64,000 nucleotides of DNA from an uncultured bacterium (GCA_963720265.1 CAVRET010000002.1:200704-264703), one strand, 5' to 3'. Shown: positions 43,906 through 51,048, counted from the first letter of the stretch. Made by a program: numbers and translations. Notes: generated from the letters alone by a model not told the origin.

Positions 43906-44045
43906 AAACAACAAAGACCAGAGGTCTCAATAATTCTCGATATTTGAATGCTCAGGTCTCCGCAGGAGCACGAACCCTATCTAACGGGTCCGGGCTCCTG
44001 GGCATAATGTATCTCGAGCGGTCTAGTTGAGTCCGAACTACAAGG

Positions 44046-44399
44046 CTAGATGGCGCCCGTGTAGGCTTTCACAGCCCCCAATTGCTTGCGAAACTCAGAC
44101 CATTGCGCGTCGGCCGAAGCTCTCACGCCCTTCCATGCCACACCTGCAGACGGAAGCCGCGCCTCAGTCTCCCTTGCCTGCTCAGCGTGGACCAGAGTGA
44201 GAAACAGCGCTCGCACGGCATTCGCGGCCTGTTCGGCGAGTTCGTAGGCACCGACGACAGTCGAATCCGCCGCTGCCATGTCACCGACCTGCATGAGTAT
44301 GGCCCTGAGCCGTTCGTCGAGCGCGGTAGCGACGAACCGAATTGCCGGGACACGAATCACGCTACGCTTGGATGCAGCCGCCTCACCAATGTAAAACAA
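44046..44399 (-). CDS. Hypothetical Ala-rich protein (weak call).
   Basis: GC-rich ORF of 117 aa with no motif. Confidence 0.25.
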   Translation of the reverse strand: MFYIGEAAASKRSVIRVPAIRFVATALDERLRAILMQVGDMAAADSTVVGAYELAEQAANAVRALFLTLVHAEQARETEARLPSAGVAWKGVRASADAQWSEFRKQLGAVKAYTGAI

Positions 44400-44456
44400 G
44401 CCTGCACGAAATTGTCGCGAAGCTCACCTCCGTCGAACCTGCGAACACGCAACACC

Positions 44457-44753
44457 TTACGTTTCTTCCATGTAATCTGCAACTATATTAACAATTTGTT
44501 GGACTTGAGGTGAGCAATTCTTGAACCAGACACAATCATACATGTCATCGCCATATTTCCTGATTGCTTCACTTATCAACGCATGCACAAAGGACTGGGT
44601 CGCTCCCGTGATTCCCTGAAAGTCTAGAGTGATGTCGCCACCTTTTTTAAGCACCGGAAAGATTTCATTTATCCGCAAATCCCGGGCCACATCCTTATTC
44701 TCTGCAAACTGACCAGTTAACCGAAGCAATTTTATTGTTTTCATTGTCCTCAA
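44457..44753 (-). CDS. DUF4325 / STAS-like domain protein (anti-sigma-antagonist-like fold).
   Basis: 98 aa. DFQGITGATQSFVHAL resembles the STAS phospho-loop. It lies 3 nt downstream of the GHKL ATPase gene. Confidence 0.6.
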   Translation of the reverse strand: MRTMKTIKLLRLTGQFAENKDVARDLRINEIFPVLKKGGDITLDFQGITGATQSFVHALISEAIRKYGDDMYDCVWFKNCSPQVQQIVNIVADYMEET

Positions 44754-44756
44754 GGG

Positions 44757-45740
44757 TTATATAAAATGCGGACGCTTGTAGCGAGCCTTTCTTCGCTCCC
44801 GCACTGCCGACGAGTAGGCTTTTCTAATCTCCTCCAGGAGGGAAGCAAACTCGCCAATTTTATCTAGAGAAATATCAATCGCCACCAGAGTCCCTTGCAG
44901 AAAAGGTGCCTCGTTAGTTGACGCATGCCTATCTTTGTTAGGATCAGCGTTCAAGCGAATTAACCTTACGTCTGGTCGACGCTTGAGCAAACGGTATACG
45001 CCGCTACCGCTGTAAATCATGAAATAGTCCCTGGTTAGCATCGCGATAGACTTCACAAAGAACAAACCTGCCCCAGCGTTCTCAGCAGTACCCCCCTCCC
45101 TAGTGGTTGTGCCGGATACTCCTGGAACCAAGGCCCACTTTATGGCATCAAGGTCAGACCGCGTGTGATTCGCCCAAACCTTAGCCATTGACTGACGAAT
45201 GCCAATGCCTGTATCGCAAATACCTAAGCGAATAACGTTTGAGTCCTGATAGTACTGAGCAGCAACGATAGCCCCATTTTCGGAATGGGAGTGCTCCAAC
45301 ACATTTCTTACTAGCTCGCCTACCGTGTATTTAATAGCATCGGCCTGAGATGGCTGGGCTTGGAGATGAAGCAGCGGCACAATATCGGATATAAACCTGG
45401 TTTGCTCAATTTGAGACTTAATTTGGGTCAACGGAATGAAGCGACCTGCGGGCTCATGACGCGTAATACTGAAAGGTGAGTCTACCCGAAGGATTTTGAA
45501 CAGCTGCATTCTGTCGAGATAATGGCCTGAGCGTGCTTTTATCTCATCAAAAAGGATTGATTCGAGCTTAACATTGAGACCAAGAGCAGCAACTAAAGTT
45601 AGGATGGCAGGATGCACACTTATCCATTTATCGTTAGTTGTCACCTCTAGCCTTGTTGGCTCTGAGGTATCAAGAAAGCGCAAAAATGAATCAATGTTCC
45701 GCAAATAATCGTTATTAGACAGGTGGACCTTCATAAGCAC
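44757..45740 (-). CDS. GHKL-superfamily ATPase (HATPase_c) with an N-terminal domain of about 130 aa of unknown function.
   Basis: N-box ELVRNVLEH, G1 box DTGIGI, G2 box GAGL. The ATG at 45734 or the GTG at 45740 could be the start. Confidence 0.65.
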   Translation of the reverse strand: MLMKVHLSNNDYLRNIDSFLRFLDTSEPTRLEVTTNDKWISVHPAILTLVAALGLNVKLESILFDEIKARSGHYLDRMQLFKILRVDSPFSITRHEPAGRFIPLTQIKSQIEQTRFISDIVPLLHLQAQPSQADAIKYTVGELVRNVLEHSHSENGAIVAAQYYQDSNVIRLGICDTGIGIRQSMAKVWANHTRSDLDAIKWALVPGVSGTTTREGGTAENAGAGLFFVKSIAMLTRDYFMIYSGSGVYRLLKRRPDVRLIRLNADPNKDRHASTNEAPFLQGTLVAIDISLDKIGEFASLLEEIRKAYSSAVRERRKARYKRPHFI

Positions 45741-45751
45741 TATTTTACCAG

Positions 45752-45829
45752 TAGGTTACGTTCTCAGTCAATACGTAACCTACCGGGTAAGAACCACTAG
45801 GTTACATAATTTCGCAGAACGTAACCTAG
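45752..45829. promoter_or_regulatory. Two similar palindromes, TAGGTTACG-N13-CGTAACCTA (45752-45782) and CTAGGTTAC-N15-GTAACCTAG (45797-45829), directly upstream of the GHKL ATPase gene; candidate operators.
   Basis: The inverted repeats can be read directly. Related GTTACGA motifs recur at 47069-47181. Confidence 0.55.
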
Positions 45830-45993
45830 AGGCAACGACGCGATCGTAAGCAGAACCCATACTGAGCCAGTACAAACCAGAAACTACGCGTTCAACCATT
45901 AACCGTGATAATGCTTACTACTCGATCCGGATGAGCTGTTGTGGCTGAACAAAGGCATAAACGTTTGATCTTCCATTTAGCCCGCGCTAATTC

Positions 45994-47058
45994 CTACTTG
46001 CTATCGGCGTTTTCGTCCATGTCACGCGGTGGAAAGAAGTAGCTAACCGAAGAATCCGCCAGCTGATCCAAAAACAGCTCTCGGAGGTTCGCGAGTGAGC
46101 CTTGTTCATAGAACAAGATCAGTGCGGCCTTATAAGCCTCGATATCCACACTCCGGTATGACAGTGGCGGAAAGCCGTAGGCTAGCAAAACAGCGTTAGC
46201 GAGCAGGCGTGACGTACGCTTATTACCATCAACAAATGCTTGAAGATACGGCAACAGTACCAGGCACGCCATAGCCTTCTCGAGTGGCTGTTCTAACCCA
46301 TTGATCGTATCAATTGCATCACGCATATAGGTATTAAGCTCAGCCTGACTGGCGGGCGGAATGTACACCGTACCCGTAATACCCACCGGCTCGTTGCGCA
46401 GTCCAAACTGCACCTCCAAGCCCTCGACCAGCAACTGATGAATCTCCTCGATCTTACCCTTGGTAAGCATCCGGTAATCCTCCGGGTGCTCCCAGATGTA
46501 ATCAAAGGCTTTTTTGTGATTTAAAATCATCACCGCTTCAAAGTGTTCGTGGCCCGGTGCTTCTTTGGCATCTTGCAGTAGTCGCTCCGTATCGAGCAAC
46601 GTATATGTATTCCCCTCGATCTTTGAGCTCTTCCAACTCAGTTCAATTACAAACCGCTCTCGTTCTTTTTGTGCACTAACAGTATTACCTAGCTCTTGCC
46701 GCCGCTTTACGCCGATTTGGATACCTGTAGGTACGTCGAAAATCGTGCCACGGATAGTTTTAAACAAATCGGGCTCAATGTGCCTGTAGCGGGCCTGGCG
46801 CTGATCTGGTTCCTGGGCTAGATACGCTTTAGCATCCCAAACGACCGCTGTTTTCCCTTTCCCAGTGATGGCATAGACGGTCGCTCGGGCCTCTCCATAC
46901 GTCTCAACATATCCCTGGTCTACTAGCTGGCCGAGCTCACGAATTGTATTAATCCGGCTCTCCCCTGTCGCCTGCTGGATGGCAACACGAGCCAGCTTGT
47001 CGAAGGTGGCAAGCAAACGCAGAATTTTCTTAGAACGATCAGTTATCGTAACATTCAT
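45994..47058 (-). CDS. Fic/DOC-family protein with an N-terminal wHTH and a degenerate Fic motif (QAFVDGNKR instead of HPFx[DE]GNGR).
   Basis: Fic fold; motif ...LPYLQAFVDGNKRTSRLLANAVL; 354 aa. Confidence 0.75.
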   Translation of the reverse strand: MNVTITDRSKKILRLLATFDKLARVAIQQATGESRINTIRELGQLVDQGYVETYGEARATVYAITGKGKTAVVWDAKAYLAQEPDQRQARYRHIEPDLFKTIRGTIFDVPTGIQIGVKRRQELGNTVSAQKERERFVIELSWKSSKIEGNTYTLLDTERLLQDAKEAPGHEHFEAVMILNHKKAFDYIWEHPEDYRMLTKGKIEEIHQLLVEGLEVQFGLRNEPVGITGTVYIPPASQAELNTYMRDAIDTINGLEQPLEKAMACLVLLPYLQAFVDGNKRTSRLLANAVLLAYGFPPLSYRSVDIEAYKAALILFYEQGSLANLRELFLDQLADSSVSYFFPPRDMDENADSK

Positions 47059-47328
47059 ATACTAGTATCGTAGCACGAGTGTTACGATTAGGCAACGCTT
47101 TTGTTACGATTTAGACATTTCGTGACACGTACGGCCCAGAATCATAACATATTGATACGAATAAGCATCTTAAATGTTACGAAGCCAATGCACGCTAACC
47201 ACATGAATTTACACCGTTATAGTCCGCAACTCTGTAAGCCAACCGGATGCAATCTCGGTCCAATACCAAAAAGGGAGTCCTAGGCTCATCTTGGTCGCAC
47301 GTTCTGCACCCATCTGTATAATGTGCGC

Positions 47329-48063
47329 ATGAAGATCATCCAATTAAACCTCTGGCTGGGCCACATCCTTGATGCCGCCCTCGCCTATATCGACCGCGAA
47401 AACCCCGACGTTCTCTGCGCCCAGGAAGTTAATAGTGCCGAGCATGGCTACGGGCTGTTCGCCTCATACCAAACCCACCAGCGGATGTCTGAGCTCTTCC
47501 CGTACCAGTTCTTCGCGCCCACCTATTCATACCAAGCTCTCGGAGAAACAGTTCAGTATGGCAATGCCATCTACTCTCAACTCCCGCTCGAAAACACCTC
47601 GGTCACATTTACAGCCGGGGCTTACAAAGACAACCGCACTATAGGCAGTCGTGGCTTCGAAATCCGCAATCTCCAAGTCTGCGAAGTCAACCATGGAGAT
47701 GGGGTACTCACCATCGCCAACCACCACGGGTATCACACTCCGAGTCCTGAGGACACCGCCGACACCATCGCGTCGATGCACCAGACTGCCAAACGGCTGC
47801 GGCAAGTCAAAACTCCGCTGGTATTATGTGGCGACATGAACGCAGGCCCCACCAGCCGCACGCTCGCCCAACTGGAGCCTTTGGGGCTTCGTAACCTCAC
47901 CGTCGAACATCACATCACCCATACCCTTTCGAGCGTCCACCGGATCAAGGCCGGCGCGGTGAGTGACTACATCCTCGTGAGCCCTAACCTCACCGTTACT
48001 GGGTTCCATGAAGCCAACGAGATAGTGTCCGATCACAAAGCGCTCGCGCTCACACTAGCTTAA
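47329..48063 (+). CDS. Endonuclease/exonuclease/phosphatase (EEP) family protein (the track start is GTG at 47323; the ATG at 47329 is the likely leaderless start).
   Basis: EEP motifs including the C-terminal SDH. TATAAT at 47317-47322 lies 6 nt before the ATG. Confidence 0.7.
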   Translation: MKIIQLNLWLGHILDAALAYIDRENPDVLCAQEVNSAEHGYGLFASYQTHQRMSELFPYQFFAPTYSYQALGETVQYGNAIYSQLPLENTSVTFTAGAYKDNRTIGSRGFEIRNLQVCEVNHGDGVLTIANHHGYHTPSPEDTADTIASMHQTAKRLRQVKTPLVLCGDMNAGPTSRTLAQLEPLGLRNLTVEHHITHTLSSVHRIKAGAVSDYILVSPNLTVTGFHEANEIVSDHKALALTLA

Positions 48064-48138: not shown

Positions 48139-49260
48139 CTACCGCAAGTAATCGCGCAGCTTCTTTGACTCGCGGTGCTTGCGCAGCTTCGCCAGCGCTT
48201 TGGCTTCAATCTGGCGGATGCGCTCACGCGTCACGCCAAATTCCTGCCCCACCTCTTCCAAGGTGTGCGAACGGCCGTCTTCCAGCCCAAACCGCATACG
48301 CAAAATCTTTTGCTCGCGCGGGGTCAGCAGCTGTAGTACTGCATTCACGTGCTCCTTTAAGAGCTGATGTGTCGCCGCTTCCTCGGGTGTGAGCGAATCC
48401 TCATCGGCAATAAAGTCGCCCAGCAAGGAATCCTCTTCTTCGCCCACCGGCGCTTCGAGCGAGACAATGTCCTGCTTTATCTTTAAGATGTGATTGACCT
48501 TATCAACGTCCATCTCCATCTCGGCCGCAATCTCTTCCGGCAGCGGCTCGCGGCCCAATTCCTGCACCAACCTGCGTTGCGTGCGGATCAGCTTGTTAAT
48601 CGTCTCCACCATGTGCACTGGAATACGAATCGTGCGGGCTTGGTCCGCAATCGCGCGCGTAATCGCCTGCCGGATCCACCATGTTGCGTAGGTCGAAAAT
48701 TTAAAGCCTTTCGTGTAGTCAAATTTCTCCACTGCGCGCAGCAGTCCGGTGTTGCCTTCCTGAATCAGATCCAGCAAATCGAGCCCGCGACCAATGTACT
48801 TCTTGGCAATCGACACTACCAGCCGCATGTTGGCCTCGGCCATCGCGTCCTTAGCCGCCTTATCACCGTTCGCAATCCGCTTGGCCAGCGCCACTTCCTG
48901 CTCGCTGGTCAAAAGTGGAATCTTACCGATCTCACGCAAATATAGCCGCACCGAGTCGTCGGCAATGTCTTTGTTGTAATCGTCAGCCGTCGCCGCCTCG
49001 GCCTCAGCGTCATCTTCCTCTGTCGCCGCGTCCCAGATCAGCGCATCTTTCTGATCCGTAATTTCAATACCCTGCTCCAACAGCACGGCATAGAGCTCAT
49101 CAAGCTCTTCCAAATTTTCCTCAGCTTCAGGCAAGGCCCCCGCAATTTCTTGCTGGGTCACATAACCCTGCTCTTTGCCTTTCGCTAGCAAACGCTCAAT
49201 CTCGGGCGAGTATCCGCTCGAGCGATCCAGCGTTTCTTCCTCAACAGCTTTTTTCGCCAC
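48139..49260 (-). CDS. rpoD: RNA polymerase sigma factor RpoD/SigA, a short form without the region-1.1 extension.
   Basis: Regions 1.2, 2, 3 and 4; [27 protein letters not shown]. Confidence 0.95.
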
Positions 49261-49263
49261 TCG

Positions 49264-51048
49264 TTACACCTCCTGATCCAATAATGTTTGATACTTACGC
49301 AACAAATCACGCACCAAAGGTGCGTCACCTCTCTCTTCGGCTTCGCGCAAGGCCCGACTTAAATGTTGCTTCTGATCCTGATTCGAACTAATTTGCAGCC
49401 TTCTCGCCAGCCCGAATGCCTCGAAACTGCGGTCTGCAGGAGCGAAAGCTTCATACTCTTGCTCGCCCCGTAACAATAATATATTAACGTAATCTGACAG
49501 CTCAGTCAATGCTCCGGCAATGGATGCCACCGGTTCCCGCCGATGTTCTCGTACCGCCTCAAACACCGCCCGCCGCCGCTCACCGGAAAAAGCCTCAGCC
49601 GTTAAATCATCCAGGCAGATCCGCGCTACAGGCTCAAGCAGCACCAAGCCCAGCAGCGACTCCTCCAGAACTTGCCTAGCCCCAGGCTTACCTTCAGTTT
49701 GTACAACTGCCCGGCGGCTTGGCTGATCATCGGGACGCTCACGGCTTGCCATATCCGCTCGCGGCCGGGCACCAAGACTCACCGACTGCGCCAATTTAGC
49801 CCGCACCGCTTCCTCGCCCGTCCCAGTCTTTTCCGCCAACAGTTTTACATAGTGGTCCTGTTCCACCGGATCACCCAGCCGCCGCAAACTCGCCGCCAAA
49901 CGGTCAGTATATCCACGCTTGCCAACACCGGAGCTCAGATCATAATCGCGTTCGAACCGGTCAAACAGATAATCCACAATGTACTTCGCCCCAGCAATCG
50001 CCCGCTCCCAAGCCGCCACATCCTTCTTGATGAGCTCATCAGCATCCTTGAATCCCTCCGGCAGTTCAACCATGCGCAAACTAAGCCCCAGCGTTTGCCC
50101 CAGCTCGATCGCCCGCTCCGTCGCCGCCAGCCCCGCACGGTCCGAGTCGAACGCCAGCTTCACATTCTTCGTCAGCTTGCTCAAATTCCGCAAATGCTCA
50201 AGCGTCAGCGCCGTCCCACTCGTCGCCACCACCGGTTTCACCCCAGCTTGGTGGGATGTCACCACATCCATTTGCCCTTCTACCAGCACCACCTCATCAC
50301 GCGTCCGTATCGCTTCCCGTGCCATGTGCCATCCAAAAATCGCTTGAGACTTATCAAATAACGGCGTCTGCGGCGTGTTCAAATACTTCGGCTCACCGTC
50401 ATCGAGCACCCGTCCGGTAAACGCAATCGGCCGCCCCTCCCTGTCCCCAATCGGAAACATTATCCGCCCGCGAAACAGGTCATAAATCGTATTGCGTCCC
50501 TGCTTCTGGCCGGCCAGCCCGGCCTGCAATAATTCTTTGGATGTAAAGCCGCTCTTTAGCAAAAATCCCGTTAATGCATCCCACGAATCCGGTGCATACC
50601 CAATCCCAAATTCCCTTACCGTCTCACGCGTCAATCCCCGCTTCTTCGCCACATACTCAATCGCCGTCTTATTAGCCGCCAAGCTCGCCTGAAAATATCG
50701 CACCGCCAGCGCATGTGCCTCCTCCAGCCGCTCGCGTAACCGCTTGGCCGCCCCGCCGTCACTCTTGCGCTCCTTTAGTTCGACCCCGGCTTTGCGCGCC
50801 AAAATCTCCAGCGCCTCGCGAAACTCTACCCCCTCCATCTTCATGACAAAGCTAAACATATCGCCGCCTTCGCCACAGCCGAAGCAATGGTAAATCCCCT
50901 TCTCAGGGCTGACCATAAAGCTCGCTGTCTTCTCCTGGTGAAACGGGCACGGCGCCTTCAAATTCCGCCCCGCCTGCTTCAATGGCACGTACGCCCCCAC
51001 CACCTCGGTAATCTCCAGCCGGCTCTTGACCTCCGCGACCTCATCCAT
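49264..51048 (-). CDS. dnaG: DNA primase DnaG.
   Basis: Zinc-binding domain CPFHQEKTASF...CFGCGEGG and a TOPRIM domain. Confidence 0.93.
   Translation of the reverse strand: MDEVAEVKSRLEITEVVGAYVPLKQAGRNLKAPCPFHQEKTASFMVSPEKGIYHCFGCGEGGDMFSFVMKMEGVEFREALEILARKAGVELKERKSDGGAAKRLRERLEEAHALAVRYFQASLAANKTAIEYVAKKRGLTRETVREFGIGYAPDSWDALTGFLLKSGFTSKELLQAGLAGQKQGRNTIYDLFRGRIMFPIGDREGRPIAFTGRVLDDGEPKYLNTPQTPLFDKSQAIFGWHMAREAIRTRDEVVLVEGQMDVVTSHQAGVKPVVATSGTALTLEHLRNLSKLTKNVKLAFDSDRAGLAATERAIELGQTLGLSLRMVELPEGFKDADELIKKDVAAWERAIAGAKYIVDYLFDRFERDYDLSSGVGKRGYTDRLAASLRRLGDPVEQDHYVKLLAEKTGTGEEAVRAKLAQSVSLGARPRADMASRERPDDQPSRRAVVQTEGKPGARQVLEESLLGLVLLEPVARICLDDLTAEAFSGERRRAVFEAVREHRREPVASIAGALTELSDYVNILLLRGEQEYEAFAPADRSFEAFGLARRLQISSNQDQKQHLSRALREAEERGDAPLVRDLLRKYQTLLDQEV

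Follow-up and report, generated by a model that had tools for sequence, protein, structure and literature searches.

A probable mobile two-gene kinase-STAS cassette of the CapK/VapK type, with a predicted leaderless promoter and paired palindromes, beside a Fic gene in a Saccharimonadia genome

CapK is a helix-turn-helix (HTH)-STAS-GHKL kinase that is turned on by single-stranded DNA (ssDNA) of about 20 nt, which stacks on its W68, and that phosphorylates Ser54 of CapS, a STAS protein with a winged HTH (wHTH), whereupon the CapS dimer is broken and the adjacent immune operon is de-repressed (Chambers et al., EMBO J 2026, PMC13373217). CapK and CapS control CBASS, Bub, Thoeris and other operons, and their loci use palindromic operators with two spacings (PMC13373217). 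VapK is a STAS-GHKL kinase in which F54 is equivalent to W68, and its phosphorylation of VapS, a STAS domain followed by a C-terminal helix (residues 94-116) that inhibits the PIN toxin VapC, leads to release of the toxin (PMC13373217). Two-gene forms, archaea and bacteria of the Candidate Phyla Radiation (CPR) are not mentioned in that paper, and beyond it our literature search found no further description of the family considered here, a kinase (K) and a small STAS protein (S) encoded by adjacent genes in a 64-kb stretch of DNA from an uncultured bacterium (GCA_963720265.1, CAVRET010000002.1:200704-264703; hereafter the window, with coordinates counted from its first letter).

Positions 44457-45832 of the window probably constitute a self-contained, mobile two-gene cassette of the CapK/VapK-CapS/VapS type, to which the neighbouring Fic gene is unrelated. 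The cassette would comprise a compact promoter giving a leaderless K mRNA, two operator-like palindromes, K as a predicted serine/threonine kinase, and S, translationally coupled to K. An initial annotation of the same DNA had described three co-oriented open reading frames (ORFs), which were found where it placed them, and had regarded Fic, GHKL ATPase and STAS-like protein as one candidate module. The features of the cassette are as follows, with residues numbered by the 327-aa ORF for K and by the 98-aa ORF for S.

45794-45832: operator-like palindrome A, TAGGTTAC-N15-GTAACCTA, the second copy, 46 bp upstream of palindrome B
45748-45786: operator-like palindrome B, CCGGTAGGTTACGT-N11-ACGTAACCTACTGG, with the -35 box between its arms and the -10 box directly adjoining
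45742-45771, minus strand: predicted K-S promoter, with -35 box TTGACT (45771-45766), 18-nt spacer and TG-extended -10 box TAAAAT (45747-45742)
44757-45740, minus strand: gene of K, the predicted STAS-GHKL kinase, ORF of 327 aa from GTG
44757-45734, minus strand: K as in the database copy, 325 aa, from the ATG at 45734 (M3)
45366-45740, minus strand: N-terminal STAS-type domain of K, aa 1-125, from the AlphaFold2 (AF2) beta-alpha repeat and the VapK alignment
45624-45626, minus strand: codon of the invariant W39 of K, aligned to VapK F54 and CapK W68
44868-45353, minus strand: GHKL (Bergerat-fold) kinase domain of K, aa 130-291
ATP-site motifs of K: N-box E142/N146 (N146 codon 45303-45305), G1 box D176xG178xG180, G2 box G223-A-G225
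44760-44867, minus strand: long C-terminal helix of K with a basic tail, aa 292-327, isoelectric point (pI) 10.3, ending RERRKARYKRPHFI
44457-44753, minus strand: gene of S (DUF4325/STAS), ORF of 98 aa from TTG
44457-44744, minus strand: S as in the database copy, 95 aa, starting at M4
44600-44592, minus strand: codons of the invariant putative phospho-acceptor motif T52-Q53-S54-F55-x-H57 of S

The distribution of the cassette was surveyed with one genome per species. Relatives of K were found in 511 of the 185,579 species representatives (0.3%), belonging to at least 10 phyla and both prokaryotic domains, and the loci of the best 80 of the 511 were examined. These 80 share 52-78% identity with K and come from Patescibacteria, DPANN and other archaea (16/80), Elusimicrobiota, Omnitrophota, Saganbacteria, Chlamydiae, Planctomycetia, Armatimonadota and Proteobacteria; the archaeal cassettes are 54-58% identical to that of the window. 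A DUF4325 gene directly follows K in 82 of 84 loci, the two misses being contigs that end less than ~260 bases past the K stop, and at 53 of 75 unique junctions the stop codon of K shares an ATGA with the start codon of S. Four proteins (P0231, P0250, P0251 and P0264) are single-chain K-S fusions; P0140, another candidate, looks like a frameshift artefact. The constant gene order, the overlaps and the natural fusions support the functional pairing of a GHKL protein with a STAS protein that had been suspected from the window. No conserved third gene or effector emerged from clustering 1,113 neighbouring ORFs or from scanning the four nearest genes with Pfam and PADLOC, and in 74 non-redundant loci the same scans, covering the two flanking genes on either side, showed no recurrent partner (PIN in 2/128 downstream neighbours, Fic in 2/122, each defence family in at most three).

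Based on its predicted structure (AF2; mean predicted local distance difference test score 79.7, predicted template modelling score 0.82), K consists of an N-terminal beta-alpha domain, a GHKL domain and a long C-terminal helix. The GHKL domain is intact in its ATP-binding motifs and is structurally of the anti-sigma-factor serine kinase type, and the nearest solved structures are SpoIIAB and RsbW, in fold libraries that predate the VapS and CapS entries. Pfam confirmed the expected DUF4325 on S (E 6.8e-9) and Fic on the neighbouring protein (E 2.9e-13), while the HATPase_c assignment of K was recovered only by two models, both below their gathering scores. NCBIfam returned nothing above cutoffs for the proteins of the locus, spIIAB (TIGR01925) scoring 17 bits on K against a cutoff of 135, and the profile of K matched only SpoIIAB among the PDB sequences, insignificantly.

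Comparison with the CapK, CapS and VapK sequences, taken from the source data of PMC13373217, was more informative. In hhalign, the K profile aligned with VapK over 236 columns and both domains (probability 96.7%, E 4.5e-10), whereas only the GHKL core aligned with CapK (81.7%). W39, invariant in 26 of 26 K sequences, falls on VapK F54 in this alignment, and by eye the CapK stretch GDAW68IDEN matches NDKW39ISVH of K. Although Pfam gave no direct STAS match and no HTH on the window protein, the N-terminal domain of the K homologue of Marinitoga phage MPV1 matches Pfam STAS (25.1 bits against a cutoff of 22.6), and the fusion P0251 shows a weak STAS_2 match. Considering the VapK alignment, the beta-alpha fold and the MPV1 match together, the N-terminal region of K is best assigned as a STAS domain; what had been taken for a novel domain is in this respect not novel. 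A duplicate of S can be discounted as its source, as hhalign found no similarity between the two. The basic C-terminal helix is kept in all operator classes (described below) and is missing from the 302-aa VapK. The family is large, with 2918 clusters at 90% identity (E <= 1e-3), and uniform in length at ~322 aa. Among PADLOC v2.0 models, S matched none and K met no system-specific one; positions 49-214 of the 1750-position DrmA model PDLC02567 match K 47-212 (window 45105-45602, E 1.6e-14). As this match covers only the N-terminal ~200 positions, it would reflect a shared N-terminal module and not make K a DrmA, and some DISARM DrmA helicases would accordingly carry a K-like N-terminal STAS-GHKL module.

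S is an acidic protein (pI 5.3) consisting of one STAS domain, whose last helix is followed immediately by the C-terminus at residue 95. Its profile matches PDB entry 9z7o, "Escherichia VapS" (E 0.006), and its nearest structures in the same older fold libraries are the antagonists of SpoIIAB and RsbW. T52 and S54 are invariant in 74 of 74 S partners. Since helix alpha-2 begins at Q53, the T-Q-S triplet stands at the alpha-2 N-terminus, as does the phospho-site in SpoIIAA, CapS and VapS, which bears out the earlier comparison of this loop with the phosphorylatable loop of anti-sigma-factor antagonists; in a weak alignment with CapS, S54 falls on Ser54 ("ATQSF" versus "TDSSF"). By analogy, S is probably the protein that K phosphorylates. 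Taken together, the alignments place K-S in the CapK/VapK-CapS/VapS superfamily, apparently nearer VapK/VapS.

The promoter region of the cassette is equally distinctive. The predicted -10 box TAAAAT ends 7 nt before the K ATG (45734), so the K mRNA would be leaderless. Two copies of TAGGTTAC-N15-GTAACCTA stand upstream of K in the window, 46 bp apart, and the proximal one encloses the -35 box; no further copy is present in the window, and none is expected there by chance. Palindrome A also occurs in L089, the locus of a K relative with 86% identity. Upstream regions of the other loci were anchored on the K start and compared with a background of 742 upstream regions of other genes. Palindromes with arms of at least 10 nt were present in 41 of 54 unique bacterial loci versus 43 of 742 background regions. 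Both sigma-70 boxes were recognised in 32/54 bacterial loci, with a spacer of 17-18 nt in 30/32, and the -10 box ended 6-7 nt before the ATG in 26/38, which suggests leaderless mRNAs there as well. In the archaeal loci (n=16), a TTTATAAA-type box lies 29-36 nt before the ATG in 15/16, and CCNGGTA/TACCNGG half-sites occur at least twice in 13/16 versus 3/742 of the background; the archaeal copies have a TATA box in place of the sigma-70 boxes and have kept the half-sites. The same gene pair with either bacterial or archaeal core promoter elements represents a rare and clean case of adaptation after inter-domain transfer.

Palindromes of different loci fall into classes by their arms: TACCAGTAGGTTACGT in the window, TACCAGTAGAGTAC, TACCTGTAGAGCGTG, CTGTCGAGCGTGT and TACCTGTATA… elsewhere, and TACCGGGAWTCCCGGTA, whose arms are each palindromic in a 7-3-7 pattern. 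No variation is seen at the outer TACC-N-G / C-N-GGTA positions, and the inner positions covary between arms, being 75% Watson-Crick versus 46% (maximum 56%) with shuffled partners. A scan of metagenomes for the double-palindrome pattern alone retrieved 35 contigs, with K right after the operator in 34 and a decayed K in one, so that the double palindrome with its leaderless start serves as a DNA-level signature that retrieves the cassette without protein searches. That the operator is a motif of general use was rejected, since the single 17-mer, met on 29 viral contigs that lack K, represents terminator-like hairpins there, and only the double arrangement is cassette-specific. A structured RNA was likewise rejected, with no Rfam match and with the palindrome lying upstream of the inferred transcription start. 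Extra copies of a locus's own operator were absent within 8 kb in every locus, so no cis regulon was seen there. As the operator travels with the cassette and seems to serve only the cassette, its binder would by elimination be K, S or the K-S complex.

Mobility of the cassette is indicated by composition and by context. The host is a high-GC member of the Saccharimonadia (Patescibacteria), its RpoD being 67-76% identical to RpoD of Saccharibacteria metagenome-assembled genomes. Guanine-plus-cytosine (GC) content averages 0.558 in the window (sd 0.027, 1-kb windows), and a trough at 44251-47500, with a minimum of 0.463, is the only stretch below the mean minus 2 sd. GC at third codon positions (GC3) is 0.44 in S, 0.48 in K and 0.55 in Fic, against 0.64-0.73 in the neighbouring marR, MFS, rpoD, dnaG and Exo_endo_phos (47323-48063) genes; the low-GC island estimated earlier by eye is real. 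K-S is compositionally foreign here and in half of the other loci, and copies were found next to integrases in accessory regions of temperate phages, on plasmids, once in tandem duplicate and once in decay. Foreign composition, patchy spread, phage and plasmid copies and the low TIGR01925 score together argue, as had been anticipated, that K-S is neither a housekeeping pair nor an ordinary RsbW or SpoIIAB system. Purifying selection on the pair is strong (pN 0.10-0.14, synonymous sites saturated).

Individual copies illustrate these contexts. On Marinitoga phage MPV1 (L092:3294-4647), a kinase and DUF4325 pair sits beside the temperate-phage integrase or repressor, a typical accessory position, and a putative kinase and DUF4325 pair, with a 293-aa protein as candidate K counterpart, occupies such a position in a Francisella prophage (PMC7924643). 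The Coprococcus phage NatCom_10489 (L091:3291-6076) encodes a distant K homologue of 334 aa, preceded by a palindrome with 17-nt arms that abuts TATAAT and followed by a 539-aa ComEC-like protein (Competence and Lactamase_B) in place of an annotated STAS gene. The tandem duplicate (L138:2996-6728) has a 238-aa gene between two whole cassettes, and the decayed copy (L135:2105-2300) retains an intact double operator and promoter and ~15 K codons, then a stop. In at least five Saccharibacteria, namely the window (dnaG-rpoD at 48139-51048), L027, L012, L031 and L033, K-S is found on the downstream side of dnaG-rpoD, and in L027 it comes directly after rpoD. Because these cassettes differ in operator class and their K identity does not track RpoD identity, the position suggests a recurrent insertion site or allelic replacement.

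These results suggest a working scheme for the cassette. At rest, K, S or the K-S complex would occupy the palindromes and keep transcription low; given this architecture, we infer that the palindromes mediate autorepression. The cue may be a nucleic acid, most probably ssDNA that arises when DNA is damaged, when phage replicates or when DNA enters the cell, which would bind the groove between the STAS and GHKL domains of K with stacking on W39, by homology with CapK W68 and VapK F54. K with ATP would then phosphorylate S at the alpha-2 N-terminus, on S54 or possibly T52, and phospho-S would leave its partner. Since the cassette comes with neither an effector gene nor a second operator, and S carries no DNA-binding domain, the likeliest partner is K itself, the operator complex, or both. 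In the most speculative step, the output would depend on S holding back K, or holding back some activity that requires K and acts on a universally conserved target.

The likeliest role is an autoregulated, toxin-antitoxin (TA)-like or sensor module. With no effector or regulon in cis, and with a function that has to work in bacteria and archaea alike, a TA-like switch is the simplest reading: until it is phosphorylated, S would keep K, or a K-dependent activity, in check. We put this forward tentatively. A fuller version, which is possible and yet more tentative, would make K-S a complete two-protein conflict or addiction module: K would be both sensor and effector on a target conserved in bacteria and archaea, K and S together would form a sequence-specific autorepressor lacking a canonical DNA-binding domain, and leaderless expression with a swappable core promoter, either sigma-70 boxes or a TATA box set between constant half-sites, would enable moves between domains. 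Of the partner-switching or conflict module proposed in the initial annotation, the kinase-STAS pair stands and a conflict or addiction flavour is plausible, whereas the triad does not.

Several observations weigh against this scheme. Toxicity of K is pure inference, defence-gene neighbours are sparse, and K and S are unusually conserved for a conflict system. The S-VapS match is borderline, and the S-CapS alignment is not significant alone (E 0.15). VapS S48 falls on Q53 in the hidden Markov model alignment and one natural fusion has TTG for TQS, so the acceptor could be T52 rather than S54. The CapK ssDNA lysines K237 and K239 align with Y164 and D166 of K, non-basic and variable residues, so that the ligand may differ. 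For the operator, a recognisable DNA-binding domain is lacking in both K and S, and no residue set in either clearly tracks operator class: of the seven diagnostic columns of K, five belong to the STAS domain, and S has one such column, with phylogeny as a confounder. The inner arms vary freely though K and S stay 55-78% identical, and selection for base pairing, as in a hairpin or cruciform, fits this at least as well as protein recognition.

The last points lead to a different view of the palindromes, as hairpins or cruciforms that promoter DNA would form when single-stranded or supercoiled and that would serve as the K ligand or as a promoter switch instead of protein operators, with the kinase-substrate part left standing. 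Compensated changes of the inner arms, with 3-4 pair types per position, are in its favour, and it accommodates the missing DNA-binding domains and the activation of CapK by ~20 nt ssDNA (PMC13373217). It sits poorly with the second clade, whose arms are each a 17-bp 7-3-7 palindrome and form two tandem dimer-type sites, with the archaeal versions, which keep one full site and a half-site in a different geometry, and with the invariant outer positions, a pattern typical of protein contacts. Extrusion of a cruciform is, besides, hindered by loops of 10-15 nt. On balance, we consider this unlikely and prefer protein-bound operators.

A domesticated regulator of small-genome episymbionts (CPR and DPANN), in which K-S would sense incoming or damaged ssDNA and tune unlinked, conserved recombination and repair or DNA uptake, would account for the very high conservation across domains, the CPR/DPANN enrichment, the DNA-metabolism neighbours (PolA in five loci, GyrB in two, RecA in one, and DnaG/RpoD) and the ComEC-like gene after the Coprococcus-phage K homologue. 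The spread over only 0.3% of species, the foreign composition and the phage and plasmid copies, including duplicated and decayed ones, speak for a mobile element instead, and the PolA and RpoD neighbours represent lineage-specific synteny within Saccharibacteria; we therefore find domestication distinctly unlikely.

Little more can be said for a CapKS-like controller that regulates whichever operon adjoins it, as CapK and CapS do after DNA damage. Homology to CapK/CapS, whose operators are palindromic with two spacings, and some defence-type neighbours (MADS components, DpdE and DrmD helicases, type I restriction-modification specificity subunits, SoFic) fit such a role. However, S lacks the wHTH that makes CapS a repressor, no locus has a further arm of its own operator within 8 kb, and the neighbours are mostly housekeeping genes in either orientation. 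This explanation is accordingly given only a small chance, and the self-contained cassette remains preferred.

The gene upstream of K bears on the triad of the initial annotation, a single three-component partner-switching or conflict system in which the wHTH-Fic protein would bind the palindromes or act as effector. Its features are these.

45994-47058, minus strand: wHTH-Fic gene, 354 aa, separate from the cassette
47045-47183: Fic repeat array, six ATCGTAACA/TGTTACGAT copies with at most one mismatch, three exact, ~140 bp

The three genes are co-oriented and all lie inside the GC trough, Fic is the only nearby protein with an HTH, and the Fic repeats ATCGTAACA and the K-S arms ACGTAACC have a CGTAAC core in common; moreover, a Fic gene stands within two genes upstream of K in 2/80 loci (L040 and L076), and a Deinococcus vapKSC locus has a separate HTH gene ahead. 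Against this, a relative of the window Fic was found in only 2 of 84 K-S loci (~2%), and more than 90% of loci have no Fic nearby, the Fic-like genes within 8 kb (6/80 loci) all having the canonical His of other subfamilies. The window's operator class occurs without Fic in L005, L006, L007, L067 and L089, and in L089, the nearest K relative, the upstream gene is different. GC3 also separates Fic from K-S.

Fic has a distinct repeat array of its own, which lies upstream of its start codon and, with one repeat, across it, and is conserved in the sister genome L088; it is probably the control region of Fic itself, or an operator for divergent EEP/Fic promoters. In L088, whose RpoD is 97.8% identical to that of the window, the order rpoD-EEP-Fic is the same, and synonymous divergence from the window is similar for Fic (0.54) and RpoD (0.53), but no relationship exists between the 187 bp that follow Fic there and the Fic-K spacer of the window. 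A Fic without K-S behind it implies that K-S came in beside a resident Fic or was lost from L088. Fic and K-S would thus be a local juxtaposition with Fic no component of the cassette; the triad is very improbable, and a false lead is removed.

The Fic protein deserves mention in its own right. Its motif QAFVDGNKRTSR, with the QAFVDGNKR noted earlier, departs from the catalytic-His motif HxFx(D/E)GNGRxxR. Rather than a local degeneration of the site, this is a conserved subfamily signature: in the homologue set P0271-P0389, 24 of 24 sampled proteins, some from Actinomycetota and the most distant at 41% identity, have the sequence YLQ(P/A)F(A/V/E/L)DGNKRT(S/A)R and keep the S-x-x-x-E-G inhibitory-helix motif, and Fic is under purifying selection (dN/dS 0.08). 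The Q-x-F-x-D-G-N-K-R subfamily is spread over Patescibacteria, Actinomycetota and others. The Gln found where the catalytic His would be speaks against ordinary AMPylation. The Doc kinase motif, HxFxDANKR, has Lys at the second Gly of the Fic motif. With Doc and class II Fic proteins, the window protein shares the Fic fold, the S-x-x-x-E-G motif and the Lys replacing the second Gly; it differs in the Gln for His, the N-terminal wHTH and the lack of an antitoxin partner. From its motifs, it is therefore best described as a conserved Fic protein of non-canonical type, having a Doc-like Lys and lacking the catalytic His.

Two further neighbours were considered. A 117-aa ORF (44046-44399, minus strand) lies directly downstream of S, with a host-like GC of 0.61; it has no Pfam, NCBIfam or PADLOC match and no counterpart in the fetched loci. 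As the only terminator-like site on the minus strand lies further on (43914-43928), it could be co-transcribed with S. The Exo_endo_phos gene was rejected as a K-S partner: it flanks K-S only in the window and in L085 (1524-2258), the two proteins share only marginal similarity (E 5e-5 over 36 aa), and no other locus has a member of the family, so its presence beside two cassettes is probably coincidence.

Classical RsbW/RsbV switching, with K as anti-sigma factor, for instance for the RpoD encoded 2.4 kb away, and S as antagonist, has in its favour the closest solved structures (SpoIIAB, RsbW and antagonists) and the position downstream of dnaG-rpoD here and in four other Saccharibacteria, but is dismissed as extremely improbable given the TIGR01925 score, the extra STAS domain and tail of K, the same cassette (54-58% identity) with TATA-box promoters in archaea, which have no sigma factors, an rpoD neighbour in only 5 of ~80 loci whose cassettes are of different operator classes, and the absence of a recurrent PP2C phosphatase among neighbours.

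Compared with the named systems, of which CapKS and VapKSC are now the nearest to a locus first thought to resemble none, K-S is most similar to VapKSC. K aligns with VapK over STAS and GHKL and carries an aromatic residue where ssDNA is predicted to stack, S is likewise small, consists of STAS and matches the sequence of the VapS structure, the kinase precedes the STAS gene, and the kinase has no HTH. Unlike VapKSC, the window has no VapC or PIN gene and PIN is rare among downstream neighbours, S at 95 aa lacks the C-terminal inhibitory helix of VapS, K has ~25 extra residues with its basic C-terminal helix, and the K-S clade spans archaea and CPR, with 2918 clusters versus 289 loci. A genuine vapKSC-type operon (ATP-binding, STAS-like and PIN proteins) was observed on plasmid P5 of Deinococcus gobiensis (L157:2327-4679), preceded by a separate co-oriented HTH regulator gene, which may hint at how HTH-less K/S systems are regulated elsewhere.

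CapK/CapS resembles K-S in the GHKL kinase with a preceding STAS domain, the STAS gene immediately downstream, the conserved Ser-Phe at the start of helix alpha-2, the promoter palindromes and autoregulation as the likely logic; it differs in that K has no N-terminal HTH, S has no wHTH, no regulated downstream operon or second operator was found within 8 kb, the GHKL core alone aligns significantly and the ssDNA lysines of CapK are not kept. SpoIIAB/SpoIIAA and RsbW/RsbV are the best structural matches to K and S, and their kinases phosphorylate a STAS Ser at the start of helix alpha-2, whereas K is twice the size with an extra STAS domain and tail, and K-S has no recurrent sigma or PP2C neighbour and occurs in archaea. 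With type II TA systems, K-S has in common two small coupled genes, a promoter-overlapping palindrome and high mobility, with plasmid, prophage-accessory and variable chromosomal sites and duplicated and decayed copies; it contains no recognisable toxin fold or DNA-binding antitoxin domain, and its sequences are far more conserved than those of typical TA families.

As judged by these comparisons, K-S represents a minimal branch of the CapK/VapK-type kinases without either known output, the CapS wHTH or VapC. The sensor pair alone forms a much larger clade than the published output-linked forms, with ~2,900 clusters and at least 511 species, many of them CPR and DPANN, which raises the question of what a DNA-damage-type kinase switch does with nothing attached. 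New here, relative to the named systems, is the cassette-borne promoter, predicted to be leaderless, with its co-varying palindromes.

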